64,000 nt of DNA from Amoebophrya sp. A120 (Eukaryota > Protista > Dinoflagellata): positions 8,786,179 through 8,850,178 of the forward strand of contig CAJINV010000003.1 of the NCBI GenBank assembly GCA_905178155.1. Reading direction: 5' to 3'. The stretch's first letter is position 1, and each line of letters opens with the position of its first letter. Below the pieces are notes generated by a model. It did no database searches, was not told the DNA's origin, and worked only from the letters and a program-made list of their open reading frames with translations. Of the stretch, positions 781-48,800 are shown piece by piece. The position numbers and the translations under genes were made by a program.

Positions 781-785
781 TACGT

Positions 786-18052: not shown

Positions 18053-18999
18053 AACCTTGCGAAATGCGAAGCCTCTTTTCTATACGAATGTGGAGTGGGA
18101 GTGTACCATTTTGGAAGGACCTGGAAAATACGAAAAATAAATGCAGATCTAGATTTGATTTTAATTTTAAACTAAAACTATTGCAAAAAAAAAGAAGAGA
18201 CTATCGAGTCGCAAAAAAAAAAAGAAGAGACACAAGATGACGAACATGAACTTCATAAGCGGATATCAACAAATTGAGTAATCAATGCACCACGATGACG
18301 AACATGCTTGAATCGACGTCGAATACCATATTAACGAGAGTACCTTCAGAACGACGATTGGGATTGCCTTGACGAGAGCACGAAAAAAGGTCGTGCAAGG
18401 GCTTTACACAAACGCATGGTCGGGCGAGCTTGAAGCACTGCCCTCGTTCTGCATAGAAATCCTGAACAGGGCTAATTGTCTGCACTGGATTGCATTGGGA
18501 GCCAGGCATCTCGAACGAGCACGAAAGACAAGCCCACGAAGACGAACGAGGAAGAAATATGGCCGAAATGCCAAATATAGCCGCCGTGGCGGGGGTAGTG
18601 AGGTCGGTGGCGCTTTCTTTCCCCGACCGTGGCCGCGGGCCGGCATGGTGCCTGCTTTTTATGGGACCGCCGTGCCGCAGTGGGTAAGGTTATGCCGCAC
18701 GGCATGGCGACCGGATAAAAATCATGGCAGATTTTTGGCAAATTTCCGGAAGTCCTGTCCGAAAGCCAGCCCCGATGCTATGGGGCCGATCCGGGCGCCA
18801 CGGGAGGCGCCCAAAAAGCGGAGGGAAACCGGGCCCGTAGCATGCGGATTGGCTTCGCGCATCTGGCGCGCTTTTTCTTTTTTGCGTTTCTATTTTTCGC
18901 GTCTGCGCTTTTTGCAAAGCTTCCCCCGATTAGAAACAGGCGAAAAAGCGGTCGCTCTCGCGGCCGCCCAGAATGCTCCGAAATCGCGGCCATGCCGTG

Positions 19000-19102
19000 C
19001 GGGGGTCCCGTTCATTACATGGGTACGGGGGCGGAGGTCCCGTTCATTACATGGGTACGAGATCGAACGGGGGCGGAGGTCCCGTTCATTACATGGGTAC
19101 AA
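19000..19102 (+). repeat. Three tandem copies of GGTCCCGTTCATTACATGGGTAC
   Basis: Directly visible; the last copy extends into the 43-bp match to 15904-15946. Confidence 0.9.
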
Positions 19103-19540
19103 ACGACCTCAAGAATGCCGCCCGGCAATCGCTCTACTTCGTGACCGCAATCGCCGAGCACCCGTGGGCATCGCGCCGCCCTCTAGCAACAGATATAAAA
19201 ATTACCTAGCAGATTGTTCGTGGGCCTCCGCCTGAGTGGTACAACACCAACACGACGTCGCCTCGAATAAGTTCATTATTTTTGCTTCGCAATTCCAAGC
19301 CTACGACGCATGCATATCAAAATCAAATGGAAAATCAGAATGTTCTTGAGCTCCTTTGGCTTCTGGATGTTGAGCTCCAAGAAAATGAAAATGATGGCTG
19401 AAAATAGGTCTGGTGACGTACGTTATTCTTCACTCAAAACCATCATCCTAATGTCAAGCTCGTGAGCGTGATGATCATGATCATGTATGTTCGGGCTATT
19501 TCGTTCTCAAAAGGTCAGACGAGTAATGTATGATATATCC

Positions 19541-22500
19541 TTACTCCCACTCTATCGTCGCGGGCGGCTTCGAACTACAGTCGTAGCAAACACGATTAAT
19601 ATATTCACTGCAAACATGTCTGAGTCTGGGACAAGACTGCAACAACATGATCATCACAGGTTTTATTGTGGCAGCTTTTCCAGCATGCCTCTCCCGCATG
19701 AGGCGTGCGCTCTTTGGCGGGAAGCGCATCATCACGAACATCGGGACGTTTGTGAACCTTATCGCCATCACGTTGGTAAGCGATGGACAATCATCTGCCG
19801 TCGACCAACGGGAAAAACTGTGCCTATACATCTGCCGGTTGCGGAGCAGCGCAGTTTTTTACTGTAAAAGCAAAAACAACACGCGTCAAAACTTTGGCTT
19901 GTCCTTGCAGACTCAGACATACTTGCCATGCATACAACCCCGCGCACCTCATTGATGATTCGGTTGCTGATGCGAGCCAGAAGCTTCCAATCGATGGGAT
20001 ACCAGTCGGCTGTCATGAAGTCGGAAGATTGTACCTGAAAATGATGAAAATACTATATCAGCCTTTTTTATAAGGGGGGCAGTTTCCGCAGCGCGGGGGT
20101 CTGCGGGGGTCCTTTTTGATTCGCGTTTTGCATTCGAGAACTTTTTTGCAGAACTTGCAGCCAATCACGACGGTATTCTTGATTCTGTCAGTTTTTAGCT
20201 CATAGCAGCATGCGGATTGAACGCAGACCCGATGGTATGACGACGTCACTGCTGGCACGACTATTGCGAATTGAAATTGCTAAACCATGCAAAACGCCGG
20301 AGCGCCGCCTGAAGTGCCACGATGCTAGACATGAAAACGCAGCACAGCGAAGCGTCAACCCGGCCCGCCCGTACTTTTACCCCGCCCGGGGAGGCGGCGA
20401 GGGCTGCTATAGTCCTCTGAACACACGCGCGCCTGGATCCAGAAAAAACACCAATGTGAAAAAGTTGCTGTGTACTTACTTCGATTTTTCACTTATACTT
20501 TTTGTACAGGATCATGATCTTACTCTAACACTTTTTCCTTGACACAAATACGAAAGTGTGATCTTGTCATGCTGTTTCGAAGAGTAAAACTGTGCAAAAA
20601 GTTGCTACGGACGGCTGATAGCTGACGAGAGACTTTTGGTGGTCTGTGCTGGCTCTCACAGTGGTGCGCTCGGTGTAAAACCAAAAAACTATAAAGTGAC
20701 TAGATGGCAGCGCTTGCAAGTGTAAACTTGTGGCCTTGCGTAACAGTTGATCTCATTTTTCAGTCATCAGTTTGTAATGCTACTTTGTCGCTTTTTCTAA
20801 AAACATGCCGACTTTCATCTTTGTGTTATCAAATTTTTATTGTCCACGAAATGGCCATGAGACTTCGACTTGGAATAACTGCGGCATTGGAAAAAGAAGC
20901 TACTGCTTGGACTGTCGCACTGGAAAACGAAAGTCAGTCTTTCTATTCGAATTTGGTGAGCTTTGTTTTTCTCTTTTTGATCCAGATTCTTGCACATTAA
21001 ATTTTCTATGCTATGGCCCGGGTTACTTATGTAAATGCGATTTTGTGTGTGTTGTGTGTTGTACTTGAATTCATGAATGCTGATTGTACAGTGTTACTAT
21101 TCCATTTCTCATACTGTTTTTATATATAAAAGCGGGAGTGGCGGGAGGGCTGCTCTACTTACATACAGTATTAGCGCTGAGGGTTCTAATTCTAGTAAAT
21201 AAATATAACGCGGGAAATGAATCTAAAGTAGTACTAGTAGTAATTAACAACAGGGGGATCTACGTAGGAGTTAGTAGTAGTAGTAGTAAAGCAACAAACT
21301 GAACTCGGTGAAAGCTGTGCATTAGAAACTTCGGCGCGGGGAGAGTATTGAGGGGTAGAAGAATACACCGCTCGCAACGACCATAGGGCGCCTGGAGGCA
21401 ACGATCAGAGAGCAAGGATCAACACCGAAGCAACAGGCATAGAGCATTTTACTTTTGTGAAAAAATGCTTTCTATTTCCCAAAAAAAATCCCCGACGATG
21501 AAGACATACGAGCGCGGCAATAGTCTTTCTTGAAGAGCTTGGCTCGACACGAAGAACGACTACACGACTTGAAGAAAAAAAAGGAGTTACTCTTTAACAA
21601 ACAAGATACCATCCAGCGCTGGCGGTGTCGAAAATCGTTAAAGAATAAACCAAAATGATGAAAGACGAAAGCGACAGAGTATCTTCTTTGCTAGAGTCAC
21701 TGTGGTCTTTTACGACTTCAAAAAAACAGAAAAGAGCTGCACCGAACTGAGGTAGGCGACACTATACCGGAACTTGAGACTTATTTTTGAAAATTCCATA
21801 CAAATCTCTTTTAGCCGATATCTCCGAACAATCGTAGAAAACACTTGCTTCCCGCAAGTTAATACTTCTGCTCCCGCCCTTCTTGGCGTCCTCTTATTGC
21901 TTTCACACTATAGAGGTAACAAAAAACAAAATTCCTGTTTTCTCGTCGAGGCAGCAATTGGCTTCGGTTCAGGGTTCTTCTCGGTGTGAAGTTTTCGTGT
22001 GCTTTTCTGTGGTAATTTGTAATGCATTTTGTACGTAGTGCGACGAATAGAAATATTGGTCTGACTACGAATTGTTTTTATCCCAATGAGCGAGAACTTT
22101 GCTCTTTCTGACGCTAGCGAGCTGCTACATACGAGAAATCCAAAAAAGTTTTTCTACGAGATGGAGCTGACGTAGCTACGACCCCAAAAACAGAACAGCA
22201 GCATCTTTTCCACTTTCACAAATGGATACAGTCGCTGCGTATCTGTGGATCGGGGAAGTAAAATTTCTGTACACATCCTATCCAAGTAGGTGAGTCGAAA
22301 GTTGTAAATTCTGAAGTTGTTTGTGTTAAATCCAGAAGTAAGCAGTCTAGTATTGTAAAATCTGAAATTCTAATTTGTGGCGGACCTCTGTTGCAATTGA
22401 AATTGTAAAAAGTCAAAACTGTAAAGCGCTTACCGGTTGTTCTATTTTCCACGTACTGCTATTTTGAAGTTGACAGCTGGTTATTTTTCAAGAACTGGAG

Positions 22501-25500
22501 TCGATTCAAGTAAACTTTTTATCATGAGCTTGCGAATTTGTGATGCTAGTTCTTGAGGCAAATCCGCATTACAGATTCAATCTCTGCAAGCATTGGAAAT
22601 GGAATCTGTGATGCGGATTTTCCTCAAGAAGTTCCTGTTCCTGAGGCAAATCCGCATTACAGATTACATTTCTACAAGCATTGGAAATGGAATCTGTGAT
22701 GCGGATTTTCCTCAAGAAGTTCTTGAGGCAAATCCGCATTACAGATTCCATTCCTAATGCTGAAGCTCTAAAGCTTTTTTTGGAGGCAAGTCCGCAAATG
22801 GAATTCCTCAGCATTGCAAAGCGAATCTGTAATGCGGATTTGTCTCAAGAAGACTTCTTGAGGGATTTATGTCTAGAAGACTCTCTGAGGCAAATCCGCA
22901 TTACAGATTCCGTTTCTAGTGCTGAAGTCCTCAAGTTCTTTCTTGAGGCAAGTCCGCAAATGAAATTCATCAGCAATAGAAACAGGATCTGTAATGCATT
23001 GGAAATGGAGTCTGTAGCTTGGTGGATTTGCCTCAAGAAAGAATAGGAGACTCTTCTTGAGGCAAATCCGCAGATTGCATTGCAAATAAATGCTGAAGGC
23101 ATAAGTTTTTTTTTGAGGCAAATCCGCATTACAGATTCCATTTCTAATGCTGAGGCTGAGGGACTTTGTATTGCTATTGCCGTAGAGACGGCAATACAAA
23201 AGCGCATGGCAAATTTCCGTTTTGGATTGGACATTTGTCATGGAAAACGCATCAAATTGAAACTACATGACAAATTTCCGCATTTGGGAATTTGTCATGC
23301 AAAACACATCACTCAATTGTTGAAGTGGCCATTTCAACAATTCGAGATCTGCGAATTGTTGAAATGGCCATTTCAACAATTCGGCTTGTGCAAAATGTTG
23401 AAATGGCCATTTCAACAATTCGCAGAACCCGAATTGTTGAAATGGCCATTTCAACATTTTGCACAAGCCGAATTGCAGAAATGGAATCTGTAATGCGGAT
23501 TTGCCTCAAGACCTTCTTGAGGAAAATCCGCATCACAGATTCCATTTCCAACGCTTGCAGAAATGGAATCTGTAGTGCGGATGTCTGTAATACGGAATCT
23601 GTAATGCGGATGTAGAAAGGGTGTCTGTAGTGACTACAGACACCCTTTCTAATGCTGAGGATTTCCATTTGCGGATTTGCCTCAAGACATAACTTTAGCA
23701 CTTCAGGAGCATTAGAAATGGAATCTGTAATGCGGATTTGCTTCAAGAAGTCTTCTTGACACAAATCCCCCAAGAAGTCTCAGCATTAGGAATGGAATCT
23801 GTAATGCGGATTTGCCTCAAGAACTTCTTGAGGAAAATCCGCATCACAGATTCCATTTGGAATGCTTGCAGAAATGTAATCTGTAATGAGGATTTGCCTC
23901 AAGAACTTCTTGAGGAAAATCCGCATCACAGATTCCATTTCCAATGCTTGCAGAAATGGAATCTGTAATGCGGATTTGCTTCAAGAACTTCTTGAGGAAA
24001 ATCCGCATCACAGATTCCATTTCCAACGCTTGCAGAAATGGAATCTGTAATGCGGATTTGCCTGAAGAACTTCTTGAGGAAAATCCGCATCACAGATTCC
24101 ATTTCCAACGCTTGCAGAAATGGAATCTGTAATGCGGATTTGCTTCAAGAACTTCTTGAGGAAAATCCGCATCACAGATTCCATTTCCAACGCTTGCAGA
24201 AATGGAATCTGTAATGCGGATTTGCCTGAAGAACTTCTTGAGGAAAATCCGCATCACAGATTCCATTTCCAACGCTTGCAGAAATGGAATCTGTAGTGCG
24301 GATGTCTGTAATACGGAATCTGTAATGCGGATGTAGAAAGGGTGTCTGTAGTGACTACAGACACCCTTTCTAACGCTGAGGATTTATTATTTCTACACTA
24401 CATTATTTTTATTATTTCTACAAAAGTAATGTAGTCTTTCTAACGCTGTATAAAATCTCTACCTACTCAAAACCTGTGCTTCGGCCCTATGGCGTTCTCA
24501 ACTGTTACATTCTCAACTGTTACATGGACTTGTGATGCAAGAGTGGGAAAAGTGAAAGGGGGGGCATTACGCGTCTTGCATGACAGATTTGGCACAGATT
24601 ATCATCCTGTTTGGCCCTTCCAGGATTTGTCATGCAGAACAGCTTGATCGTGTAGATGATCATACATGGCGCTTTTGCATGACAAATCATGCAACAGAGG
24701 AGAATGTAACAATTGAGAACGCCATAGGCCCTTCCCCCAGTCCTATCCTGAGCAAAAACGTCCCCGCCCCATGATCGTCAAGTAGGGAATCTAGCAACAC
24801 AAATCTCCAAGTTTTGGAAGCTGTGCATGACAAGTTTTCCCGTGCAGTGTAGTGCTGCCTGGCAAGAGAGGCCGCATGAGAAAGCCACTCTCTCGTCCTG
24901 TTTACAGCATTACAAACAAAAATGTTCCTGTCGTTGCAAATTTGCATGACAGGAGCTCTGGGGTGTTCGTGTTCGTGTACTGCCAGAGACCAAAATAAAG
25001 TCAATTACAGCTCATGGATGGGGACGCTTTTACTCAGGATAAACCCGCCCCGCTCTTCTTCGTGGGTATCAGAGTGCACACACCCCCTCCCCCTCGTTTG
25101 TGTTGGTTGCATGAACAGCAAAACAAGCGCTGGCAAAGATGCAGCTTCTGTGTGTCAAATTCCAAGCAGACTGCGCTACAACTTTCTACGAATAGCACTA
25201 CGTAGCGTAGTGCTGTTTTGGATTCGGGAATCTGTCACGCAAGTAGTGCCTTCATCATCATCATCATTATCACGCGTTGCCTTTTGCTTGACAAATGCGG
25301 GCTCGGGGGCGCAGGGCACTTTCATAGGGGAGCTGCCAATCGTACACCAAAACCTTCCGGCCGTCCGTTGCCCCGGTAAAGGTGTGCCGCTTATCGTTCT
25401 CGCTGTAGCTTAGTTTTGCAACTCCCGTGTTGGTGGTCGCCGCAAACCCTATCCTGCGCAAAAATATCGCACCCGTAGTAATTGCAATCATGCATTACAA

Positions 25501-28500
25501 ATTTCCTTGATGTAGTAAATTAGAACTAGTGTAGTAACGAGCGATAGTTTTTAGAAGAAACAGCTAGCATCGTATGTAAAATTGCAACTCGAACTTTCAA
25601 AAATGACCTATTTCCACGAGCAATGCAGTTTGTTTATTAACCCCGTCGATTGTGTAGCAACATCGCGCGAGAGGTTTTTTTTATAAACAAGGTAAATCCG
25701 CATTACAAATCTTATGTCTCACGCAGAGGAAATTTGTAATGCATTTAGTATACGAGTGCGATGCTTTTGCATTGCATACACCCGCAGTGGCGGCAAATGC
25801 ACCCCTTCCCCGCCAGGGGCGAGGAAGGGCGCACAAAGCCACGCATGGAGCTGTCAGGTTTGAAATCGTCAAAGTTGAAGTAGTTTGCTATGCATAAAAT
25901 GCCTGTCTTGCTGAGTAGGCAAGGGAGGCAGATTGTGAGCCTGTTTCGGGGTAGAAAAAGAGCTGCTCAAGCAGCATGACAACAGGCGTCCTCCTTGCCC
26001 TAAGAGAGTTACAAACTGCATTCTGACTCTAAATACTCAGCTTTGTCATGCGCCGCGTAGACATTGGGCTTGCAACTGGCATCGATTTTATGCATTACAA
26101 GTTATCTCTACTTCAACTCTGCTGATTTCAACTCTGACACATCCATACCATGGCCCGCGAGAATCGTCCACAGGGACTGCAACTCGCCCGGGGAGGCGGG
26201 TCTTTTCAGCGGTTTTGCCCGGGATGACTTTTTGGCCGTTCTTATCCTGTGTAAAAACGTCCCCACCCCAGAGTTGTCATGCAAATGTGCAATGACAAGA
26301 ACATTTGTAATGCGGATGAGCATGAGAGGCATTTCCAATCTTGTTTTGGACTTTGTAATGCTGTGAACAGGATGAGAGGCTTGTTTTCTCATGCGGCTGT
26401 CCTTGCTAAACAGCACGACAATACAGATGGAAACTTGTCATGCAAAACTCCCAAAACTTGGAAATTTGTGTTCCAGATTTACTAACTTGACTATGGGGTG
26501 GGGACGTTTTTACACAGGATAGTTCTGATGATTGACATCGAGCTCGCGGCGAGCATATCAAAGGTAAAAGGGTCTGGGTCTGGAAAAACATGCTGGCTTT
26601 CATGGCGCAGAAGGTGTGGCATGGAAGCTCTAGCGTCACAGGTCTCGACAAGCTTCCGCACTGCCGAATCCGCATGACAAATTCCTCATTTTGGTGACAG
26701 AAAGTGTGCAGCTTTTGCGACCTATGCATGAGAGATTTTTCTGTATTCTGAAATGCGCATCACAAGTTTGGCGCTTCCAGACCCAGACACTTTTGCACCT
26801 GATACCGTCCGTCGTCAGACGAGGTGCTGAAATCGTCGCAACTCAGCGGGCATCCTGTGCAAAAGTATCGCACTCATAGTGATTGCAGTTGTCACGCGTT
26901 ACAAATATAAGTTTTTATTTTCTGAAGGCAAACCCGCATCACAAATTCCGCTACCAATGCTGCGGACCTTTGATGTGATGCAGATGCAAAAGCAATTCGT
27001 ACTAGTTTGATTCTTTTGCAATAGATAACGGCTCTGCCTGCCATCCTTTAGACAAAACCCCCCACCCCACAGCCAAGACTGCACCTCTATCACAACTGCA
27101 AAGAAATTCTGGCCCTTGCGCATGACAAATTGCTGCCCTGCTCCTCGTTGCGAAAGTTACAAACAGCATCAAAAAAGCCTATACGCGGGCGGCAGGCCAA
27201 ATAGTTTGGCCCGGGCATGCAAATACGCACGGCAGGAATGGGGCGGGGTGTTTTTGCAAAGGATACCGCCGCCGCCGCGTGTTCCTGTTTCATGCGCGAC
27301 GTCAAAGACGGCGGGGGCGAGGCTGGGGCGAAGCTGGGGCGGAGCTGGCGGGCCGGGCGGCGCGTCGGCTCCACCGGCGTGCTCCCGCTCCTCCCGACGG
27401 CCGTGCTGACAATCGCCGCGGGGCTGCTGCCGCTCCTTTTCATGATTGCCAGCGAAGTAGTGGTAAAGTCTGAGTAGAAAGGAAAGTCCTAAAGTCGGAG
27501 TAGAAAGCAAAATCCTAAATGGAAGCTTGAGTAGAGCACTGTAGCCGGGCGGGCTGAGAACTGAATGTATATAAGGACAAGGAATAGCAACAGTAGCAGT
27601 AGAGATTCCAAGCAAGATAGAGATACACACCACGAGAAAACGACACCGAATTCACAAAAAAAAGGAAAAAAAACATGGACTTCGCGATTGTAAAGCTACC
27701 AACCAAAAGAAACAGGAGCAACCGACTCAGACCCTGAGTACAATAAAAAAGTCATGATTTGCCGTGCGTAAAATAAAAAATTCGCAAACTTCTGCTCATC
27801 TCATACTCATGCATACGTAGTGCATGAAGTCGAAACTAAATAAGGTGCCTGCTCATACGCCCAAACGAAAAAACAACTCACCGACTTGCCATGCGCAAAG
27901 CACAGTTGCAGCTTCAATGTAATTGAAATAATCTTACGGGGGTTTGTCTATACCGAAAGTAACTCACACCACATGTCCTTCTTCAGTGTTCCCAACTTTA
28001 AACATTTCTTCTCCCCGCCCGCCCAGAAACAGCAAGACTTTGCTTCACTTTTCTGGCACCTGCATGCATCGGCTCAGCCGTCCGGAGAAGCTCTGAGCCG
28101 TTAGCTGCGGGCTGCGATTGTCACAATTAACAACCACAACGACGCACCCAGGGGCCGCCCGCGTGGAGGACACGCATGCAGGAATTTTTGGCCCCCTAGA
28201 TGCCACCTGGCGGTGGCATCCGCCATCCCAAAAACTACACCGAGCAGTTACAAATACGCCACAAGGGCGCCGCACAAAGAGCACGGCGGTGGCACTATGG
28301 GCAGTTCCATGGCGCTTGCAAAGCGCTAGAGTCCCACCGTGATTGACAAACATAATACATCTTTTGTTTTTTTCTCCTTTAGAATGAATCGAGCCCCGCA
28401 GACCCCCGCAGACCCCCGGGGACCCCCGCCCCCCGCAGCTTATAAAAATAACTGCTATATGATGTCACTGAAAACAAGTGCAGTTGACGTTCTTGTTCGT

Positions 28501-31500
28501 GTCGACGTAGTAGTACTTACAGCTAACCCTTGCGCAGCTTCATTTTTCTCGAGGAATTGATATTTTTCGTGTGGCGCATTCCGTTTTGAATGCAAGAAAC
28601 GCCATCACATATATGTTTTACTTTCACGACGCACAACGAGAACGGAAACTGACAGCAGCAGCAGCAGCACCACACGCCGTGCGGGGATTGTCACGGATAA
28701 CAGAAACGGAGCTGCTCGCATGCCGTGGAGCACGACCGCATATCACTAGCTTAATAGCTGTAAATTTATCACATCGCCAAGAAAAAATAATCATACGTAT
28801 ATCTATAAAGAGACTACGTGACTGGTGATTTCATTTTTCTACCGCTCTGAGGGCGACGGTCATCTCGTAAGTTCGCGCGTCTCCCATCACCCCTACAGTT
28901 TTGCATTCCGGCATAAGCACCGCAAAGGCCTGCCCCACCTCGTTATAGACCCCGGCCTCTTTCAAGCTAGAAATGAAAATGTTGTCCGTATAGAGGGGAA
29001 GTGAGTTGTGATCTTTGGCAGTGCTGCTAACCAGTAACAGGAGTATGCCATGCGCTTACGCCTTGCATTGTCATGCAAATAAAAGCATTAGCATACGAAA
29101 AAAAAATAAAATAAATCAACTTCGTCAGTCGCGGAGCGATTTTTGCATTGGCCTTGGGTTTTGCTTTTGGTAGGCTACCTTTTGCCTGACAATTAAAACC
29201 GTGGCCGTGGAAGCAAGTCCGCACGGAGAAATGGAATTCTTCTTGGGGGTGGTAGTAGTGCAGGACAAGATCAACCCCCTGCTTCCCTCCATAGTCTGCC
29301 TCGCGCAAGACGTCCGCCCGCTCTTTTGTGACGTCGCCGCCGACAATTCGAATCGCGAGTCCGGGCCCGGGAGTATGGCCTTCTCGTCAGACGTTGTCGT
29401 GTGGCCATCAGTTGCGTTTCGTTTTTTCTGCTTTGATGTCATGCAAAATCTTTTCCACGACCTTCCGCTCAAAGCTGCCTCGTCGCGCGACCAGGCAGCT
29501 GGTCGCGCGACGCGCCAAACTGCGTTGACATTCGTGCCAATCTCGTCAACACAAAAAGCATGGCAGAAAGATAAAACAAAAACCGCGGCCTCCAGCTCCT
29601 CCATGAAGAAGACACACACGCAGAAATTCTACAACGAAAGTCCACACGACAAGGACGTCTGAGGAGGCCATAGGGAAAAGGGTGGCGCATGATGCTATCT
29701 TCATGCAGACCCAGTTCGCGGCCGAGCGAACGCACCTCGTCCTTGAACAGCATCCGGGGAGTATTGTGAGGAAAAATCCCCCCTCCCCATATCGAAAACG
29801 AAATTTGTGATGCTGTATTTGAGTACACAGTTCAGATTTGTCTTCCTGGAGAGGACTGCAGACCCATATCAAGCCTGAGTAGAGAGGCTTTGACCTGGAC
29901 GCTTGGCATGAAAAGCGTCCGTGCTGTAGGCTCAACAGCATGACAAACCGCCTGTAGAATGCGGCGGATCCTGTGGAGTTGCCTTCATGCAACACAGAGA
30001 CGATTTGTGGTCGTAAATCAGCAACACAAATTTTCGAAAGCGTACCTTTTCAATATGGGGTGGGGGGATTTTTCCTTTTGATAGAGAGGCTCAATCAGTC
30101 CCTTGAACTTCAACCTCGTAGTTTCATGAAGATCAAAATGCCCGCCTCAGGGTCACAGTCGCAGAAGTGTAGTTGCGCGATGTTGAATGAAAAGAGAGCT
30201 CAGATGAAAATAATGACGAGGATGCAGAAGCAGAATCACTACTACTGCTCCGCCCGGTTCGGGGGCCGGCGCGCTCGTGGGTTTGGGACTTATAGTAGAA
30301 GTTCAGAGCTCCTTCACACTATCGCTATTTTCATATATCAGATTAGTGTCATAGAGATGCGCTTAGAAACTTGAGTTGATGACCACGCGCACACTGCTAG
30401 CATACTAAGTATTGGCGACTGGTGGTGAACTCGCACCCGCCTCCTGCAATCGTCGCGTGTAGCTGTAGCTGCATGCCGACACCCGGGTTCGCGCCCGAGC
30501 GTGGGCAGGCACGGATGCTGCGTAAAAAACAGGGCGCCGCTTGGTCGCCGCTTCGCGCTTCACGGCGACAGAGAGAAGCTGCGCAGCGTACTTCTCACAA
30601 CAAGATCAGGCCAAAACCAAGTGGCTTAGGGCTTGAGCGTCAGCTTAACCTAAAGCTATGACGCAAGCACAACTTGCGCTTTGATCACTATCGTTTTTTT
30701 CATAGCTTCTTTAGCATGATACGCATATGCGGAAATTGTAATTACGAGACCCCAATCCGCGGAGCTGCAGGTGCAGGTGGTCAGGATCTATAGCATTTGA
30801 TAAATGGGTATGGGTTGTGTAAAAAAGGGGCGCCGGCGACCCTGTACCTTTCGGGAAGCCCCCCAACATTGTGGTGGGACTTTATGACGGAAGAAGGACC
30901 CTTGAAGCTTGTAGACTCAATGACGTCCGGGTACAGGGTTCCCTGCAACAAGTAAGTGGACTCAATGGGCAAATCCGACTCGCGAATCGCCCGCTCGAAG
31001 GCGTCTATAAAGAGCTTGCCGATGATTTTTCGTTTCCTCTCAGGTTCCGTAACACCGTGCAAAGCTTGATAGAATTCAGCGCTCGCGTCAACGCATTGAA
31101 GCTTCAATCCGGGTATGTGTTGGGTTAGTCGCGTCTGCACCTCCTGTGCCTCGTCCTTGCGCAGCAACCCGGTGTCAATGAGAAACGGGCGGAACCGTTC
31201 TCCCAAGGCCCGGTGCATCAAGCCAGCGGCCACAGAGCTATCTACTCCTCCGGAAATACTATGGCAGCGTCAGGATTTAAATCGTCAAAGTTGAAATAGC
31301 TTGTAATGCATAAAATCGATAACAGGCGGAGGCCCAATTTCTAAGCGGCGCATGACAAATTTTCCGAGCACCGGATTCCGATTTGTCATGCTGGTTGGGC
31401 ACAGACGACTGCTTTTGTCATGCAACTTTTGCAGCTCTATTTCAAACCCTAAACAGGCTGACAGTGGGTCTCACTTGCCATCCAGGCAAGACAAGCACTT

Positions 31501-36861: not shown

Positions 36862-39800
36862 TTACTGCTGCAATCTTTTCAATCGTAACTCTCGAATCAA
36901 AGCTATGATCTCGTGCAGAAAAGGGATCATGGAGGAAAACTTCTGTATACTAGGGATGGAGATGATAGTACAAGTACGACTTGCTGGTGGCAAGAAATTA
37001 CTCATCAGTACTATATATCAAGTATAGTATTTGCATTTATATTTAATGGGCTTCAGTACAACTCTTTGGGTCTTCACTTTTTCTCGATATGAAGCTTCGC
37101 CCAATTGCTTTTTCCGCTGATGGTTTCGTCCGTGATCTTCAGGACCGTGTGCTCGAGCACATGTGAGGCGCAGTTTGTGAAGAAATTTTCGAGCCGAATA
37201 TCGCCATACTGCTCGAGCGTATCCGCCCAATACTGTTCCGCACGCAGTACCGGGTCTTTTTCGATTTCATGACGATCCTGGTCCTCCTCGCCGCCCTGAA
37301 GAACAGCAACATCACCACCGCGGGTACGTTGAGTGTTTGTGTTGCTGCTGCTGCTGGCGTTCGCCTTGCTTCTATCGGAGGTATTGCTTGCACCCAAGAG
37401 TGCACTGGCTGCGGCTGCGCCCCCCACTTCTGCTGCTTCGCTTGCACCGGTGCCCCCGAAAGAGCTTGAGGAGGTTTTGGTCCCCGCAGCCGAAGGCGAC
37501 GAAGAACCGCGTAACGGTGGCCGCAACTTCATCTCCTCGGCGCGCGACACGCCTGCGAATAAATCTTTGTCCGGAAAATCCATCAGCAGGGCGCTCCGTG
37601 GGAGGGATACTCTGGATCCGGTATCGGCGTCGGAATGATCCCTATGAAAGTGAACAACTGGTGGTACTCTAACTCTCCGTCCCGCCCTGTTCTGGAACAA
37701 GAAAGCAGATACTCACTCATATTTATACCGCATACCGCTACCGCATCGGAATAAGAAGAACTAGAACAATGTGGCGGGAAATACAGAGTTTGGTGACGTC
37801 GAATTCGCGATGCCCATGGAATTGAAATTGGTGTACTAATAAATTACTAACTTGCTTTTCTTTTTTCATTATAAATGTGTGGGGTTCATGGGGCACTTGT
37901 CGTTGTCACCAGACAACGTTGACGATCACGACAGCCCCAGAAGCGCCGTTGTAGTTGTACACATTCTTTTTTCATGGGAGTTCTATTCTTGGCCTTTTCC
38001 TCGTTTTGATGCATCGCAAAGGACGAGTATGAGAAGCACACGGACGAGCAGGAGTGTCACGAGTTGTCCGCTATCGTAAGCTTTTCCTCGTTCTTCATGA
38101 GGCCTCGATGACGAGGAGGAGGAAGAGCCCCCGCTCGCCCCAGCAACAACGTCGATGGGCGGAGGCAGTACAAGCGGATCAGTCCTCTGCTTGACGCGCA
38201 GCTCCGGTAGCCCCTCAAGTACCGATGGTCTGGCGCCGGTGGTGGGATCGAGCTGCGAGAAATACGGTGCAGGTTGCGCCGCTTGTTGCGCAAGGAAATC
38301 CTTGAAGGAGTCCCCGTTCAAAAACACACGCATTCCCTCGATGATGTTGTCGCACACGGTCGCGAAGTCTTCCTTTGGCTTGCTCGAAGATGAGGACGTC
38401 GCAAGTGCGGCTTGTGGTTCTCCATCTCCGCCTTGAATCACCATGGATCCTATTCGTGCCGGCTGGGATGGGGAAGATGCCTCCACTGCCCCTCCTGCTT
38501 GCACCAAGTGCTTTTCCCTCGGAAGAGCTACCGCAAGGTCGCTGCTCTCCTCTGCTCGGCATGCGACGGACAATCGCACAAACAGCGGAAAACTAGCGAG
38601 GGACTCCCCAGTCTGTGGCAACGAAGCAGTGTGTCCACCTGGTGTGATGTTGTGTTTCCTATTATGTCACTAAAAATAGTTGTACAAATTGATAACTAGC
38701 AGCTCTCGCATTCATGCCCCTGATTCTGCAGCCTGTGTTGTTGATCTGATGATCATATTAATCCTCTTCCCCATTGCAGTAGCAGTTGCAGAAAGTGAAT
38801 GACCAAAGAGCATTTTCATTTTCATGCAGCTGCAGCTCGAGATAAAGTCATTAAAGATGTAGATAGTTGAAGCTACGCCTACTACTAAGTAGAGGCTGCC
38901 GAAGAACTCTACTAAGTAAAGGTCTTCGGCAGCCTGAGTTGCTGGGAGGGAAACGGTGGAAAGCAGCGTCCTACTCATGCAATTACTTACATAAGGAGCT
39001 GCCGCCCGATCCATATTTGAGTGAGTGAATGAATGAAGATGACAGACACAAACTGACGGTGTTGGATTGCTAAAACAGCAGCGACAAACAGGCCTACGTG
39101 AAATCAAAAAACAATAAACAATATCAGATATCAACTCTCCCAGATGATCATGATGATGACGAAAAGTAGAGGCTAGAACTACAGTACGAGTCACTACTTA
39201 CCTTGACTGTGAAAAGACTCCGACAGCACTTGGCTGAAGCCAAGGTTTTCCTTATCTAGGTCATCTGTCTTCGTTTCCTGTTCGCGCGACCTGAGGAAGT
39301 TCTGCTCAAGCTTTTTGTAGGCACGGCGGGGCGTGAGATTCGAGATGTGGGAGGAGAGCAGTGCCGTTCGATCCAGACTGCGATTTAGGTACTTCTGACC
39401 CGCGGCTGTGCTCATGAGCGCGCGGAAACGCGCGACCGTGAGGCGGTTTACAACGGAGACGTGTCGATTTGCAAAGTTGTGAGGATCATAGGTTGGCTCG
39501 TGTACTGCGTCGGTATGCGCCGCGAAAACCTCCTCTTCTATCATCGGCCGCTCCCACGGATCTGGACCCGGTGGCGGTGGTGGGTGCAGCAGTTCCCACG
39601 ATATCTGACACTCTAAATCCCCGACCAATTCCAGTGGACCTAGGAGTAAACCAGAGTTGTAGATGTTGAAAATATAAATAATTCACTCATTAACTACATA
39701 AAAAGCAAATGCTTTTGATGACTAGCTTAATTCTGTACCAGTTCCAGCAGTTCATCTCATTATATTTTGAAAAAATGTTCGCTTCGTCGCCTCTTTCTTC

Positions 39801-42800
39801 ATTCGCATTCTGAACAATGATCATGAAGCAAAAGAGCCTCCTCCTGGACCTCCTACATATAATTATAAAAATACTCAAAAATAAACACTACATGTACATT
39901 TTCCAAGAAGGACCACCGGACTTACCTTCGATACAGTGGAGCCGGAAAAGAATCATCTGGTGCGTCCCGGGATAAAGCGTCCCGGACTCCGGTGTGATGG
40001 AGAACTCCTCCATGTTTCGGAAGAGTCCCTGTGTGTGCCACTGGAAGCTGAGAACGCTATCCCTGGAATAGTTGACAAGCGCTACCACCTTGGTGTTGAT
40101 GGAGTCCACTGGTACCACGCCAAAGTCGACCGCCTCGCACGGTGTATGGAGTCGCCAGCGATGGGAAACAATCATCGAAATGAAAAAGATGAAAATACTT
40201 TATACAAAAAAAAATGTCAGGCGACACCGAAGCGCGGCGCGGCCTTTTCTTTTGCTACATCGTGTATTGAATGCGTGGTTCTCATCTGCGGGAGGCCGGA
40301 AAAGGATGTCTCCCAAGGAGCGAGAACGTATTGGTAGGTCAGGCCCAGGCAGACAGCAGCGTATAGAGTTCCTCCATCGCCATCACATCCAAGCCAAGGA
40401 GACCAAGTTTTACTTTTTCAGGCTGGGTCCCAACTTCGATGTCAGTTTCTCTTACATTCGCAGGGCTTCGCAACGTTTCCTACAAAGAAAAGGAAGAATC
40501 CAAATCAACTTGCATCTTCAAATGCACAAATTTCTTCAGGCATCCTCAAATCCCTCGGGTCACTATCATGTGGGTGATTGTATTTGAAGACTCAAACTAA
40601 TCCGCACCGATCGTGTGCAATGTCAGAGCCAAAAAAACAACATTGGAATCCAGTTTCATTTCTACGGACGGTTTCCCATCTTGCGCGTCCGTACGAGAGA
40701 GCCGCACCGTAATTAGGCAGAGGCGCGTACGTCTGTAGCGGAAGGGTCGGTCCAAAGGGTGGAGTAAGGTACTCCGGGGGCGCCTCTCCCTTCTTCGGGT
40801 CGAAGCCCGTTGCGCACAGTTCGAAGTCCAACGTTTCCACCACAGTTCCGTCTCGCAACGTCAAATCGATTTTGATCGGGCACCGTATCGGCTTTGCTTC
40901 GATGGGCGTAAAGTAGGCGCTATTCCGAGAAAACTTACCACCTCCATCCAATTTGTTACACAAAGCACGACGTTGAAACAGTTTCCGCTGCTAGGGGACG
41001 CGGCCAACGTCCCTGCCTGGGCCGCGTCCCTGTTGCTTTATAAAACTTAAAACGGTAGTGGTAGCCACAATCGTCATTGTTTTTGCGAAGTACGAGCGAG
41101 GGCGAGCACGAATAGTACCGCATGATAGCCACTTGCGCGGCAATGGCAAACTCTACCTCGTATAGTTACATTGGACGAGATGAACAAACTTCTGCTAGTT
41201 TTATTCGTCCCCACGATAGGTGATGCATGGGGATGGTAAATTTTCAGGGCATAGGCGTGCAGGAAAAGACGTGACTTGGGATCCAGGTTGCCCGAAGTGG
41301 GGTGGATGGTCAGGAGCGGGAACCCGTAGTTCTGTGCTTGCAAATCGTTGATGCTGGCCTGGTTCAGCATCCAGTATGCTGGGGCACTCCCGCAGTTGCT
41401 CAATTCGATTACCTGTAGTGGGCCTCGCTCGTAGCCGATAGGGACAGGCCGGAGTGTGATCGCGTTCGCGCGGACGCTCAGCCTGCCGATATTTGGTGGC
41501 AACGTGTTTGCCTTACAGTAGAACACCATGGACTTGCCTCGCAACACGGTGAGGACGAAGGGGAGAATATGCGTGCCGACGCTGATATGGACGTGCCAAG
41601 TGGTAGAATTGAAAAAATCAAAATGGAAACACTATAAATATTCATGCAACTACAGTCCAGGTGGATTGATCAGGGTTCACGCAACGTGGGAGCATCTCAC
41701 CGAAACCCGAGTCGGGCAGAGCCATCAACTACAAACAGCGATTGCTCGCCGACACATAACATGAAAATCGATGCCCACTCCTGTAAAAATATCCGCATAT
41801 TTTTCTACTTACGTGGCGCAGCATGGAAAATTTTTCGGATCCTCCGAGTTAGTTTGTCCCTGTTGGTGTCGTTGAGAGCAAATCCGAGATCATGCTTCTC
41901 GACAACCCCATTCATGCTTCTCGACAACCCCCAGAAGATCGTAGTCAGGCTTACAATCAGCCCCCGTAGTTGCCTCGAGTGCACTGAATTCGACTGCGGC
42001 ATCTCTCTGCCATTATGTAAATTTTACTTATTTTCCATTTTGTCGATTTCCAACCAACTGAAGAGCCTCTGATAGCTGAAGTGCTGGTACGTGAATCGCA
42101 CGAACTGAAACTCTCCCGGCGCGATGGTTGCGGTCTTTGGGTACACGTCGAGGACCTTGTGGTTCTCGACCCACTCGTAGTGGTGTTCCGCCATCATCAG
42201 CCTCTGCTCCTCCACGGTTGGTTCGTCCCCCGTGCTGGCGCCCCCCTGACTGGTTCCCCGGTGCCATGGGGGAATCTCGTCGTGCCACAGAGGCACATCT
42301 TGCAACTGCAGGTCGCCTGGGGTCTGTAGTTCGAACTCTACTGGCACGTCCGTCGGGTTCGTTAGAACCTTAAAGATATTCATCATCTCGGTTTTAGCGT
42401 ATTTGTTGTTCCCTTAAACTTCTACATGCATGATAAGCCGTACACATATCATACAGCCTGTGTCCGACGTGGGCGCTCTACGAAATAGGAAGGGTCAAAA
42501 AGTCCAAAACGTCGCTATGACGCACTGATCGTGTTGACCCACGCCTGTCGGTCGTTCGCAATAGAAAACTACTCCTGGCGAGAAAATATTTGCACTATTT
42601 CATCAAATGAATCAACATCAGTATTCACTTTCAGCATTGCAAATGGATATAGAGGCTGCACCAAGTAGACGACGGTTGGTTGATTGCCGTACGGCGCGGT
42701 TCCAAAGTTCAGCTGGTAGCTACCCAACTGCGGCAGGAGTTTTCGTCGCGCGTCGAATCCGAGCGCGCTCTGGAACTTCCGATCTACCGCGCTGGGTCGC

Positions 42801-45800
42801 AGCCGTTGCCCCTCAAATCATATGGAAATCCTCTACCACCTGTAGCCATCTCAAAAAGTGCACAACTGCTACTGGGCTTGCACCTCGCAGTGTCAACATT
42901 CTAAATGAGTGTCAGAAGTGCCGTCAAAACTACAAGTATAACGGTGCAAGGCTATAAAGAAACATGCCACGTACTAATGCAATTTCGAAAATAATGCAAC
43001 AAGGGCAAGATTACGGCGACCGCGAGCCGCAGTCTGCTGCAGCTCTACTTTTCCGCGTCCTTATATATAGGTTGTATTAATTTTTTGTCCTATACCCAGC
43101 AGAAGTTTCGATTTATAGAAATTTCCCACTTTGCGAACCATGGAATGGAGGTGGTAAGCCTGACTTTCTCTACCATAACTGATTGAAGTCATCAACTTGG
43201 CAGTAAGTCCAGAGCATCGACACTGGCTGGGACACCGCGGACTCCTGCCGGACATCCGATATTTGCACGAGCGGCGACTGGGCATCTGCGCGCACGCTGA
43301 AGTGCGCCTCGAGATCCGCTTCGCTCTGGTCTGGTAGTGGATGGTGAAAGGCGACCGGAACCACGCGAATGTGCCACTGATGCACGCCGCGCCGCTTCGG
43401 GTTCACCTCAAACTTCAGGTCCACAAAACCCCGAGGGCCCACTGCACCCTCGGTTTTCTCAAATACCAGGGAGTCGCGAAACAGCGCCGCGCGATCCTCG
43501 TTGCGCTCCAGCGGGTCCTTCGGGGGCTGTGGGCTGGGAGGGTAGCTATACCGGTCCGTGATGCGCGGGGAATTCAAAGGCGTGCTGTGTTTAGTTTGTC
43601 CTCTCGTCTCTAGTAGATCAATCGCATTTAGATTTATTCATTTTCATCGTGCTTTATTAGTCGCCTGAACGTGAACCTGGACCTGCGCATTCCGAGAAGA
43701 GCGGTTCTCATGCATTGTGTCTTCGAGCGCCCTTCAGCTACTTGCAGGCGAAAGTCAAAGGATAAGGAAGGTATTCATTTCTAATTGTCATTGTGTTTAT
43801 CTTTATAATTATGTACTTACATTATAGTTGGTCATACGTATAATTTCTGTTCTCGAACGGACAGGAAGACCAACGGGTGGACGCCCGACGAGCGCGCAGG
43901 CACACACAAAAAAAAGCAAAAAAGAAACGCAACGCGCCGCGAATACCTCTTGCCGTCCCTATGACTTCCCTTCGGAGAACGCATTTGTTCAATGCTTTTT
44001 CTGAGCGGACTCCTATCAAGTTCCAGTCGTTCAAATTCAAATTGAACCTCGAGCTTGAACCGTACTTCCTGATTGCTGTTGTTGAAGAGCCGCACCTCCG
44101 CCTTGGTTTTGTCTGGATGCGTGGCAGTTAGCACACCTAGGTCCACTGACGAAGTTTCGAGAGACAGTGCCTGTCATAGATGCAAAAAATGGATATAATG
44201 CCGAAAGCTTGCATGTAGTCTTCTCCGTACTTCATCATCAAATGTTGCACTACTTCAGTGCCTCTTCCTTTTTGACGTCAGCAGACACTACTTCACCAAC
44301 TTTGCTGTGCCAATGGGAAAAAAAGTAGTTAATTGACGCTGAACTATGACTATCTTCCTTTTTGGTTATTATTTTCTGAACAAACTACAAGTACAAAGGC
44401 GTCTGTACCGGTTGTTGGCCGTGTCCTACTAGTTGAATGGCATAGGGTTTTCTTGCCGTCGGGTGCGGTGCAGGTTCTTCGACACAGAAATCTCCTTCCC
44501 CGGCAACATCCTCGATTGCGCGCGGCCCAAAGAAATTTCGGTCCTGTATTGCAAAGACCCTCTCTCTATGGATGTGTCAGGTACCGAGGCATCGTCACCT
44601 GAATGGAGTCGATCTTTATACATTTATCTAACATGCAAAAAAACGTCTGCAATAGGAGCCGCTGTTAGCTTAGTGGTCGGCGTCGGCTCGAGATATATAC
44701 CTTCAAAGCTATTCGACGCGCATTTGTAGTGCCTCGGGCTATTTGGAGAATGTAAAAATAAAGAGCACTATGCAAAATTACGCTTTAATGCTAGCCATCA
44801 GCCCAACTTTTACTCTTGACCGTGAAAAATAGCTGAAATAAAATTCCGATTCGCATGCTGCCATATCAAATGTATGATGTCACTTGCAAGAATGCAGTCA
44901 CTCTTTGACGCCTCGCATTGAATGCATCGCAAAATATTTCGTCCAGTGAGCGACCTACCCCTGCGCCTGACACTTCCATACTTGTCGTCGTCGGCGTATC
45001 GCTTCTCAGTGGCGTAGACGCTTATCGCGGTTGCTATCTGCCCGGCGGCTTCTGGCGTAAACTTAAGGGCAATCTGACTGCTTTCAGCTGGTCCGAGTTG
45101 GCCTTCCGCCTCCTCAACGTGAAACACGCTGCGAAATCGTGCTGGTATCCTTACATCATAGCTGATGGGAATCTCCGTCCGGTTTCGAACCTTTTTTAAG
45201 TGCGTTTTTTTTTTTTAACCGTAGGCACGCACTCACCCCGCGGGGTGGCGTCGCCGGAAAAACCAAGAACAGCTCTGTTTTTCAAGATTCTCTTTCTCAT
45301 CGTCCTACTATATATATTAGAATCAAATTACTCAAGCGATCCGTGGCAAGATTAAAGCGCTGCAACCAGCAAAACCTCCATGCGTTTGCACATTAAAAGG
45401 GATGACATTTTTGCCCTTGTTGTTACCATAAGGGCTCGCGTAGATTTCAAGCCTTGGCAGGTCAGCGGAAAGGTAAGCAGATTTTTCACATCCAGCTTCG
45501 TTTGCCAACACCTCCCCTGCACGTGCACGTAACGGTACTCGGTTTCCTAGTATCAAAAGGAATAGCGCCCCTACCACCACGGAGCTGCGGGCAACGTTTT
45601 CTATGCTTGTTCCGCAATAGGGATGTTGAAACGCATGCAGCTACTTGCTTCTTCGAGCGTGGAGGCCCCGTTGCTGCTGTTTATATATAGCATGATGCTC
45701 GCAAGTGCTTAGTTTAGTACATGTAGAGCAGTGATGCACTATCAATGAGAAGCGTCACAAGGTAAAATGTAAGCCGTCTCTCATCTCGTCATGTCGAGGC

Positions 45801-48800
45801 TGCATGGTTCGCCTATGCCAAGACTCTAACGGCATCTTCAAACTAGGACAGCAATTATGTTTTTGTATGTTTCGCAAAAATGCCTTGCGATGCAAGCATT
45901 TACATCAGCCGCACCAGGCTTAGGGGCAAGGCGCTTTTCACTTTGATGCCTCGTAGTTGACAACGATTGGAATTTTTGCTTTGAACTCGGCCTCATTTTG
46001 GATTTTCGTCGGGGAATATCCAAGAAAAAAGCGGTGCTATTGCCGGAAGCGCAGGAAAGTGACATCATGATCACTGCCCTTCTCGTTGTCGTTCTCGTAC
46101 CCTGAGCATATTTTTAGTCACATGATTCATTGGCTAAGCTTTTTGTAAAACTACAAGCATGCACTTTTCAGTGAGAACAATGCAAGCGAATACACCATGC
46201 ATAGTTATTCATAGCTAGCACGTGAATCACAATGATATGCTAGCTATCGTTATGCATGCTGGTCACCGGAATCCGAATCACTGTCGCACAGCGTTCCTCC
46301 ACGCCGAGACACTGGACCCCAACATGATGTGCTGCTCCTGTATAACAGTTTTGTACAACTAACACACGTTTTTTCTTGCATAGAGCAAACTCCACCACGA
46401 TCGCGTGAAACGAGTGGGGGTAAATGCAGCCTCGTTTGGGGTAGCAGCTGAATGGTGTTTCCTCGCCGAGGTTTTCTCCGAGCGCCGGTAGGATCCGATA
46501 CACCATCTTCGTGTCCCCACAGTTCTTGATCAAGAAGACATGGTAGCTCCCTGAAAAGATATTTGTATTTCTATGTAGCGAAGCTTGAGGTGCTTGATGT
46601 GGTTGTGGAGCAGATGATCCATTACTAATCACTGCCCTCCTCAATAAAATTACAAAAAAATACTGTCTGCAACAAAAGTCTTCGAGCCGTCAACATAGCT
46701 TCGAATCCAAGTATGCACAAGGCCAGATCATTGGTACGTTGCATGAGCGCGCAGGGCTTCATTCGCACGATGTTGTTGGAGTCCGAGACTTCTACTTGGC
46801 AGTCATCACGATGGTAGCCCATTGTGTGGCCTTGACAGTACAAATTCAGGCAGGTGGGTGGCGTGAATCTTTTCAAATTGACGAGATGAAAGCTTCGGTT
46901 TCGCTTTGGGTACACGTAGCACTCCAGCACTTCGCCGTCAAAGTTCATTTCCTTTCCGGGCCTGTAGGTCACCTGAAACTCCATCTCTCCTCGTGCTGGT
47001 ATCTCGACGCTGTTTGGGTAGACGGAAAAGGTGGCGAGATCCAGTTCCTCAAACTTCGCCACGCTTGTGGCTTGTCGCGTCTCATTCACGATCATCCATA
47101 CGGCGATCACCTTTGATTTGATTTCGATTTTCAATAGATTACGAACCGAAGCTGTAGTTGAAGCACTGAGTATTCAATTCGCGCGCTACAGTGCGCCAAC
47201 AAAGAAAGAACTACTACCCGGCACCTGTACATAGACATGCGAGTTCGCAATGCTGCAGTTCGATTAGTCTCGTCGCCAGTATCTTCTCGAAGCGCGCCTT
47301 TACTACATCCACACAGTTGCAATGCCAAAAATCTCGAAAATGCTAGTACCTTCTGACTCGTGTTATTTGTGACGGTTACTGTGCGGACTCCGGGCTGACC
47401 GAAGAAGTCAAGCTCGTCGGGGGTGAGACAAACGTCCTTCGGAGGGTAGACACACTCCAAAAAGTATGAAAGTAGAAACAGAAAGCCAGTTGTCATCTAT
47501 TAATTTATCATGGTGTATCATTTGCTCGGGTTTGCTGCGGATGCGCTTGTGCGCCATTGGTTTCTTCCCAGAGCAAACGCAAGGCGTGCTAGGGCTAGTG
47601 CTTATCACATAAAAAAGTTTTTACCTCAGTCTATACACATGCAGGCCTTTTATCTACCGCGAAAATGTAGATCCATATCTACATGGCGCTAGATCATTCA
47701 CCAAGACAATGAGACACCAAGTAAAATAACTGACTGCAATTTTCGCGTCTTTCGCTTTGATAGGAAGCTTTGTACGTTCGAAATCTCTGGGCGTTTGAGC
47801 GTCGCCGGAAAAACTCGCTCTAGGAAGTTATGGTACGTTTTCTTGGGGGATACCGAACGCACCGGACTGCCATGATCACCTGCGTTGGCATATTTTTTTT
47901 CTCATATCTTCTATAGGGTTATCAATCACGATGGCGGCATCTTCATCGTCATCTCTCTCTTCTTGCAGTTACAACATGATAATCTGTGAGCAATATTATG
48001 CAGTAGGTACTAGTGAAGGCAGTGCGAAGCTTTTGTCTGGCACAGCCACAGCCACATCAGACAAGACAAGACTCCGACTCGGGCATTGAAATACAAAAAT
48101 AGCCGCGGTTTTTGATTACGCAGACCCGCCGCGGGGAGTAGGTGTATGTGAAATATCATTCTGCATAGTGTGGCTGGCAATCAAAATCGGAGTCGCGGCC
48201 TAAACTCACATACTGAAATGGAAACTTGAACCTTCGGAATTGAAAGAAAAAAGACTATTCCCCAAGCTACGATCCTCCCGACCCCTCCATCTGGGCCTGT
48301 GCACTGAAGGCCCGAATGCGGTCCCACACCTGGGGCATTGACTCTGCGTTTTCGTTTTGGGCTGGCCTCAAGAAAGGGACGACACTTTAGCTGACTCACA
48401 TGTTCTTTGCGTCATTGAGCCACGCAAGAAGTGGCTCGGGTGTGTTTTACACGGAAGCCGCCCCAGCCGATGGTAGACTAGACCCCGCAGGAGCTTCTTT
48501 TTTGTCTAAGAAGGTGGTCGAGTAACACTACCTACCGCGAACACAAAAAGCATAAGCTGCAAAAATACCATCGTGCTCTTCCTTCCCGGGAGTTCCTTTG
48601 GAGAAAGGCGTCACACCTCCGGCAAGTGATGGCGCGTCGGGGGAAGCGTCGTCTGAGCGTGTTGGTGAGTTTGGTCTTGAGTCGTACTCCGGATAACCCT
48701 GCAGCCGCATGCGATGCCACTGCGTGACATTATCGATCTGTAGCACAGCGGGTCGCTGCGCATCCGTGTACCCGGTCCCAATCAGGTCGACGGGTACTGC

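Follow-up and report, generated by a model that had tools for sequence, protein, structure and literature searches.

In a window of 64,000 nucleotides (nt) from Amoebophrya sp. A120 (contig CAJINV010000003.1, positions 8,786,179 to 8,850,178; the window is this whole stretch, and the genes examined in it lie on the minus strand), genes are interrupted by elements with inverted-repeat ends of the form TAT…ATA, each inserted between two copies of a 5-nt direct repeat. Our data confirm that these elements leave transcripts in a single register, with one cut 1 nt ahead of TAT and the other 4 nt beyond ATA. They also show that the arms of the elements are read strand-specifically, with T at intron position +2, A at +3 and A at -7 held while their pairing partners drift. 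The elements were already known, and the single register and the strand-specific triad appear to be new.

The elements that interrupt genes in the window belong to the introner elements described by Farhat et al. 2021 (PMC7789003) as having inverted repeats that start with TAT, direct repeats of 3-5 nt and removal supported by RNA-seq. Correspondingly, the 38 elements that we tabulated have terminal inverted repeats starting with TAT (6-20 of 20 positions complementary), the direct repeats at element boundaries are 5 nt long (the copies being identical in 93 of the 113 matches to the family at other loci), and the family pattern, which has two matches in the window and none in shuffled sequence, was found in 107 stretches of metagenome contigs. 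The elements are spliced from transcripts yet present in DNA, as seen at 13 joints in the transcript contigs introduced below and in genomic-type contigs that are unspliced over the four introns compared. According to the genome paper, splice sites vary relative to the hairpin and repeats lie 1-5 nt from splice sites; its text and table rows, figures aside, give neither a single register nor a strand-specific constraint on +2T, +3A and -7A. No statement of either was found in the Amoebophrya and Syndiniales intron literature, mostly papers other than those under subscription, and the accessible parts of PMC12005148, PMC12130899, PMC11453091 and PMC12787238 do not mention them.

We express the register as d, the number of bases of the 5-nt repeat that are contributed by the downstream copy (D) rather than the upstream copy (U). 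A preliminary description of this locus had proposed d = 1, an intron of the form N-TAT…ATA-NNNN, with a single cut after repeat base 4 satisfying every case; insertion leaves a 5-nt direct repeat, and of that repeat the transcript then retains four bases from the upstream copy and one from the downstream copy. The transcript evidence consists of assembled contigs of one study, with runs X1 and X2 from one sample and X4 from the same study. No run is on record as RNA; X1, X2 and X4 were taken to be transcripts on the grounds that their contigs skip introns which the genomic-type run X5 retains, its contigs being unspliced through 9900-15933 and 19073-20088. For contigs on 24400-44399, 15 of 40 joints were displayed (nine element-type, five GT-AG and one between repeat copies), and contigs on 9900-22400 gave six joints, four of them element-type in RNA-type runs and two, off the element ends, only in X5. 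The raw-read runs X9 and X10 placed only 4 and 1 reads, and the register rests on contigs, which drop rare forms. Elements in 1-9899, 22540-24380 and 44400-64000 are predictions from sequence.

A register of d = 1 is compatible with 12 of the 13 element-type joints and is the only cut that suits all 12, nine of which are informative and three of which have identical repeats. A value of d = 0 is ruled out by joints 11887>12170, 19597>19936 and 33946>34275, d of 2 or more by joint 37637>38079, and d of 3 or more by three further introns; for each of d = 3, 4 and 5, between four and eight introns disagree. With d drawn uniformly from 0-5, all nine informative introns would admit d = 1 with a probability of 0.005. 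The proposed single cut fits 12 of 13 joints, including the fully decayed intron 11892-12168, but not for the intron at 42812-43178. In 11892-12168 the sequence alone is undecided between I and V, homologues do not fix the residue, and contigs alone settle it. The other decayed case cited in the preliminary description, 26556-26804, belongs to a nested open reading frame inside an 8.8-kb GT-AG intron and gives no information on register.

Protein-level evidence agrees. Exon 30850-31254 (minus strand) is 100% identical to a deposited protein of 608 amino acids, P0001, which bears the name Amoebophrya sp. A120, is a GMP synthase and maps exon by exon onto 17 exons from 35432 to 19544; all 13 element-type introns of this gene allow d = 1 against it (12 enumerated, one from block ends). 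Searches for deposited A120 proteins of the adenylate-cyclase-like and CFAP65-like genes returned none. The residue-level examples first used to argue for the register exist and translate as stated: EPLR (29762-30083) and CEYAA (32790-33232) require d of at most 1, HPFP excludes d = 5, and NRV, whose N is invariant in 10 of 10 aligned proteins, excludes d = 0. The two stop-avoidance examples also hold, GAGCA at d = 5 (1454-1878, outside the span of the finding) and CGAGG at d of 4 or more (45551-45948). The origin of position 5 in the downstream copy, formerly argued in part from an intron that is also GT-AG, is now established by 11888-12169 and 19598-19935, two introns that cannot be read as GT-AG.

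We regard it as very improbable that the register is an artefact of reading-frame selection combined with few informative sites. The frame does force removal of the element plus 5 nt for any coding insertion, and the transcript-level bound of d at most 1 depends on one intron (37637>38079) in RNA-type runs from one study. Frame, however, sets the length removed and not the register, for which the uniform expectation gives the probability above; the EPLR and CEYAA sites also require d of at most 1 at the protein level; and the published A120 splice-site classes all begin with NT (PMC7789003). Codon fit in the related strain described below likewise tends toward U at position 4 (11 of 13) and D at position 5 (7 of 10), with positions 1-3 flat. 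A less extreme but still improbable possibility is that d = 1 is the main register and that both cuts slip jointly by 1-2 nt in a minority of molecules, masked by the repeat copies. Such slippage would fit the 1-5 nt spread in the genome paper (PMC7789003), the loss of rare forms from contigs, the existence of one clear exception, and the lower divergence of repeat positions 3-5 than of positions 1-2 in the window (22/111 versus 27/74, p = 0.017). That gradient, however, is at most weak in the related strain (20, 19, 13, 15, 16 and 20, 21, 20, 15, 15 over positions 1-5), the joint at 19597 is identical in three runs, and aligner ambiguity within identical repeats would be expected to produce the published spread.

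The exception weighs against one fixed offset from the hairpin. Joint 42811>43179 removes 367 nt and not 362, the frame is preserved only with 367, and the intron ends 9 nt, rather than 4 nt, past its five-pair helix, so that 12 of the 13 transcript-typed introns fit a fixed helix distance and this one does not. It retains +2T, +3A and -7A as counted from its actual cut, and ends in AG. Predicted folding gives a first-pair probability above 0.6 in 7 of the 13 typed introns; in 40145-40693 the terminal pairs are predicted at 0.03, yet its joint is compatible with the common register. Folds over the full spans 42800-43190 and 37625-38092 are only mildly better than shuffles (z about -1.5). A better form of the rule is N-T-A…A-x-x-N-N-N-N.

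The terminal triplets pair +2 with -5, +3 with -6 and +4 with -7. Among 37 window elements, +3A and -7A are each present in 37 and +2T in 36, the triplet changes being TAC (3), CAT (1), ACA (2) and ATG (3); the sole +2 change is in the predicted intron 45547..45949. The triad was seen first in the window and then tested on an independent set, drawn from the 107 metagenome stretches carrying the family pattern and comprising 106 loci and 386 kb. One of these, L055, is 93.9% identical to window 33940-37971, and we therefore take the JACKZZ01 records to represent a related strain. Strand was called with a codon model trained on the window, dropping loci with a summed score below 8 and leaving 59-60 of 106; with nearby training exons left out, such calls were right for 24 of 29 single window junctions. 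All 242 oriented elements have +2T and +3A, under a detection rule that tolerated a single change anywhere in the six triplet positions. A strand-symmetric profile search found 210 elements, 14 with one triplet change, and none in shuffles. All 14 changes fall at +4 (7), -5 (4) or -6 (3) and none at +2, +3 or -7 (p = 1.2e-4). The ortholog L055 contributes one more change at -6 and also differs in the intronic repeat copy at 35051. One further match to the family pattern lies outside the JACKZZ01 set, L014 (Ga0209049_1015314) at 916-1233, with palindromic rather than direct-repeat flanks, and is possibly an assembly fold-back.

Two points temper this result. The 14 changes represent about seven variant classes and are therefore not fully independent, and the strand-symmetric one-change filter was chosen after the result of a looser triplet scan had been seen. 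That scan, which lacked the arm profile, gave 17 changes at +2, +3 or -7 against 39 at +4, -6 or -5, and it was replaced because its matches included many internal or weakly paired hairpins in which both triplets had changed. The asymmetry is not accounted for by a base-specific mutation bias, since the same base varies at the partners and not at the triad: T changes at +4 and -6 but not at +2, and A changes at -5 but not at +3 or -7. A rule of pairing alone is likewise disfavoured, because either partner could then change and A-to-G wobbles would be expected at +3 and -7, where none was seen. The three near-invariant bases likely mark how the splicing machinery finds the elements. In Table S4 of PMC7789003, the nine predominant non-canonical classes listed for A120 start with NT (GT, CT, AT, TT) throughout, the nine for strain A25 all start with TT, and A25 repeats start with TTA. 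These classes fit N-TAT genome-wide and suggest that +2T/+3A, and not the hairpin offset, is common to A120 and A25, a comparison that draws on the published table only and that aligner placement within identical repeats could bias. Seven of the eight canonical introns in the window also have +3A.

The bases at the cuts themselves are not read. In the 242 related-strain elements, +1, -2 and -1 resemble ordinary exon sequence, with +1 bases of C62, T44, A61 and G75, and GT..AG at d = 1 is without excess (4 elements, against 6.1 expected). Purines occupy +1 in 136 of 242 and the exon start in 144 of 242, and are similarly frequent at other repeat positions. In 55 related-strain elements examined for stop-codon avoidance, no stop arose. 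Two further ideas were rejected. A drift to G at intron +1, suggested by 7 of 8 window cases (p = 0.001-0.003), was found in 2/16 and 3/15 in the related strain, and a compensation of weak hairpins by GT/AG ends, noted post hoc in all four window introns with at most eight pairs, gave p = 0.76 in the strict set and 1 of 8 weak candidates.

Overall, we believe that removal of the elements by a relaxed U2-type spliceosome, one that ignores the bases at the cut sites and is positioned on +2U, +3A and -7A, is the most attractive explanation, and we give it a probability of roughly 0.55. The hairpin would bring the intron ends together, replacing recognition by U1 and U2AF; +2U/+3A would be read as the core of a GUA donor; and the A at -7, which may be the branch nucleotide, would set the 3' cut at a constant distance. 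Consistent with this, the conserved +2T/+3A match a GTA donor, the exception ends in AG with -7A in place, and the sole +2 change in the window lies in a GC..AG context, albeit in a predicted intron. The genome paper (PMC7789003) lists U2, U4, U5 and U6 small nuclear RNAs and all but six of 89 spliceosomal proteins for A120, with U1 absent from the list. Splicing of the inverted-repeat non-canonical introns of Fritillaria requires the U2 spliceosome (bioRxiv 10.1101/2025.08.15.670264; PMC13326754), and fixed distances from branch to 3' end are reported for Yarrowia, Trichomonas and Giardia (PMC2483917).

At the same time, several observations weigh against the spliceosome. There is no preference for +1 G or 3' AG in the 242 elements, and the +1 G drift of the window did not replicate. 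Position -8 is mostly G or C and does not match the branch consensus WCTRAY as given in PMC2483917, no U2-pairing motif precedes -7A, and -7A is itself paired within the hairpin. The asymmetry, which a protein that reads a single face of the helix end would equally produce, depends on the model-based strand calls described above. That A120 retains a spliceosome is uninformative, because 35% of its introns are GT-AG. About 65% lack GT-AG, and their mode of removal, apparently without U1, is called open both in the genome paper (PMC7789003) and in a 2024 review. Euglena introns with fixed spacers leave as full-length circles and not as lariats (PMC12501133, PMC11282704).

A rather unlikely but substantial alternative is the ruler of the preliminary description with base contacts added: a non-spliceosomal endonuclease and ligase, or a new ribonucleoprotein, would hold the TAT/ATA helix at its base by contacts with U+2, A+3 and A-7, cutting 1 nt away on the 5' side and 4 nt away on the 3' side. 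It would account for the unconstrained +1, -1 and -2, for strong terminal pairing in the seven typed introns noted above, and for the U1 that was not found in A120 (PMC7789003), and it has the Euglena introns, with spacers fixed around a paired motif and circular products, as precedent. It sits poorly with an exception that is cut 9 nt from its best helix and ends in AG, with 40145-40693, which is in register with almost no predicted terminal pairing, with kept 5' bases that are those of a spliceosomal +2U/+3A, and with an apparently different offset in A25 (PMC7789003); no such enzyme is known for A120 in the literature examined. The preliminary description had favoured cuts measured from the hairpin base and not read from sequence, reminiscent of endonucleolytic splicing. 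The 1-nt and 4-nt spacing and the free cut-site bases bear out part of this, but a pure hairpin-base ruler is only partly supported, because the terminal triplets are read strand-specifically (14 of 14 changes); the endonuclease in that description is an analogy, and nothing in the data shows one.

Regardless of the machinery, a single register reduces the apparent diversity of splice sites to one rule, gives gene models exact boundaries and names three bases. If the relaxed spliceosome is correct, A120 has a spliceosome free of both terminal dinucleotides. If instead a nuclease and ligase or a new ribonucleoprotein is responsible, mRNA splicing would be non-spliceosomal genome-wide, at tens of thousands of introns and in parallel to Euglena, and any insertion of such an element on the permitted strand of a gene would be silent, whatever its flanking bases.

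The features discussed are collected in Table 1. The 8.8-kb GT-AG intron of the GMP synthase gene contains a multi-copy inverted-repeat element and a nested open reading frame. The element, 8.4 kb long at window 20054-28459, has terminal inverted repeats of about 20 nt (TATA…TATA); in X5 its left part has roughly threefold single-copy depth, further insertion sites are revealed by loose ends at 20055-20059, and it may be a large DNA transposon, with no transposase identified in it. Within it, 22540-24380 is an array of inverted and tandem repeats with 82-nt units. The nested, same-strand open reading frame at 24450-27430 (minus strand) becomes an uninterrupted frame of 202 codons, the shortest exon being 12 nt, when eight TAT…ATA elements are removed; its first exon has no Pfam match, and none of its junctions is among the joints displayed. 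A CFAP65-like gene (Pfam) at 36100-51800 (minus strand) mixes GT-AG and element introns, and a single X4 contig of 7,849 nt spans much of it. A TAT…ATA pair at 40564-41127, with 4/5 direct repeat, overlaps two real introns, is not among the displayed joints and is probably a chance pairing. The adenylate-cyclase-like gene has a 3-kb GT-AG intron, 6983-10038, with, among other repeats, a 17-nt tandem array at about 9218-9700, its junction backed by X1 and X2 loose ends. Elsewhere, 16217-18076 (minus strand) is a long unbroken open reading frame with a DOT1 methyltransferase domain, over which contigs differ from the window at many sites at raised depth, which suggests several copies, and 60300-63000 is a diverged GC-rich repeat array with no obvious gene.

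Table 1. Genes and introns of the window, with repeat copies given as upstream/downstream and joints as the two joined positions
Feature	Position	Strand	Evidence and remarks
GMP synthase gene	19541..35432	-	13 element-type and 3 GT-AG introns; P0001 map; Pfam GATase, GMP_synt_C
8.8-kb GT-AG intron of GMP synthase	20035..28842	-	P0001 map; X4 loose ends join 20035 to 28840
Element intron, identical repeats	10728..11031	-	Joint 10726>11031; register uninformative
Element intron AT..TC, decayed repeat TCCCA/AGTCG, adenylate-cyclase-like gene	11888..12169	-	Joint 11887>12170 in X1, X2; d = 1 or 2; X5 unspliced
Element intron AT..AC, TAC arm	12212..12535	-	Joint 12209>12534, d ≤ 4
Last GMP synthase intron GT..TT, GGTTG/TATTA (NRV)	19598..19935	-	Joint 19597>19936 in X4, X1, X2; d = 1-3; X5 unspliced
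Element in nested open reading frame	26552..26805	-	Frame open at every d; no joint displayed
Element intron CT..GA	28985..29294	-	Joint 28983>29294, d = 0-3
Element intron TTCCC/CTCCC (HPFP)	29370..29673	-	P0001 map; d = 5 excluded
Element intron CTCTC/CTCCC (EPLR)	29758..30084	-	P0001 map, d ≤ 1; L invariant in 10/10; no joint displayed
Element intron, identical repeats	31256..31574	-	Joint 31253>31573; register uninformative
Element intron CT..TG	31610..31766	-	Joint 31608>31766, d = 0-2
Element intron GAGTA/GAGCA (CEYAA), ACA 3' arm	32786..33233	-	P0001 map, d ≤ 1; no joint displayed
Decayed element intron CCCAG/GCCAA, ACA 3' arm	33428..33885	-	P0001 map; position 5 silent in protein
Element intron GGTAG/GGTAT (GIC), also readable as GT-AG at d = 4	33947..34274	-	Joint 33946>34275, d ≥ 1
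Element intron TT..GA, TAC 5' arm, AAGCT/GGGAT	37639..38079	-	Joint 37637>38079, d = 0 or 1
Element intron GT..CC, TAC arm, weak predicted hairpin	40141..40694	-	Joint 40138>40693, d ≤ 2; terminal pair probability 0.03
Element intron CT..GC	40917..41254	-	Joint 40913>41252, d ≤ 4
Element intron CT..AG, identical repeats	41582..42075	-	Joint 41580>42075; register uninformative
Exception: starts T-TAT, ends CCATA-TGATTTGAG	42812..43178	-	Joint 42811>43179, three equivalent placements
Predicted element intron, CAT 5' arm, GC..AG at d = 1	45547..45949	-	Sequence only

The tRNA splicing endonuclease and Ire1 also take their cut positions from structure and distance and not from GT-AG, acting on tRNA-like bodies, bulge-helix-bulge motifs and hairpin loops. 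Unlike these, both Amoebophrya cuts lie outside the base of a long-range helix, and the substrates are thousands of mRNAs. Set beside conventional U2 introns, the elements have the donor +2U/+3A, and they lack GT/GC-AG termini (AT..TC at 11888-12169, for example) and a U2-pairing branch motif.

Yarrowia, Trichomonas and Giardia place the 3' splice site by distance from an adenosine, at about -6 and -8 by our own count from PMC2483917, comparable to the A at -7 in Amoebophrya; they keep AG and a strong branch motif, ACTAAC/CTRAC, whereas the Amoebophrya elements have neither. Fritillaria borealis shares transposon-derived introns without GT-AG, but its introns end mostly in AG-AC or AG-AT and U1 is kept, whereas in Amoebophrya the terminal bases, which derive from the target site, are free and U1 is reported missing (bioRxiv 10.1101/2025.08.15.670264; PMC13326754). 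The nonconventional introns of euglenids, as described in PMC12501133 and PMC4770533, are alike in their inverted-repeat ends, lack of GT-AG, fixed asymmetric spacers, some flexibility on the 3' side and likely origin from miniature inverted-repeat transposable elements. Euglena uses CAG/CTG with spacers of 3 and 5-6 nt and favours a purine at intron +1 and at the exon start, whereas Amoebophrya uses TAT/ATA with spacers of 1 and 4 nt and its elements have no such preference. Thus the Amoebophrya ends read N-TAT…ATA-N4 and not N3-CAG…CTG-N5-6, and the principle of spacers fixed from a paired motif is nonetheless found at 12 of the 13 joints.

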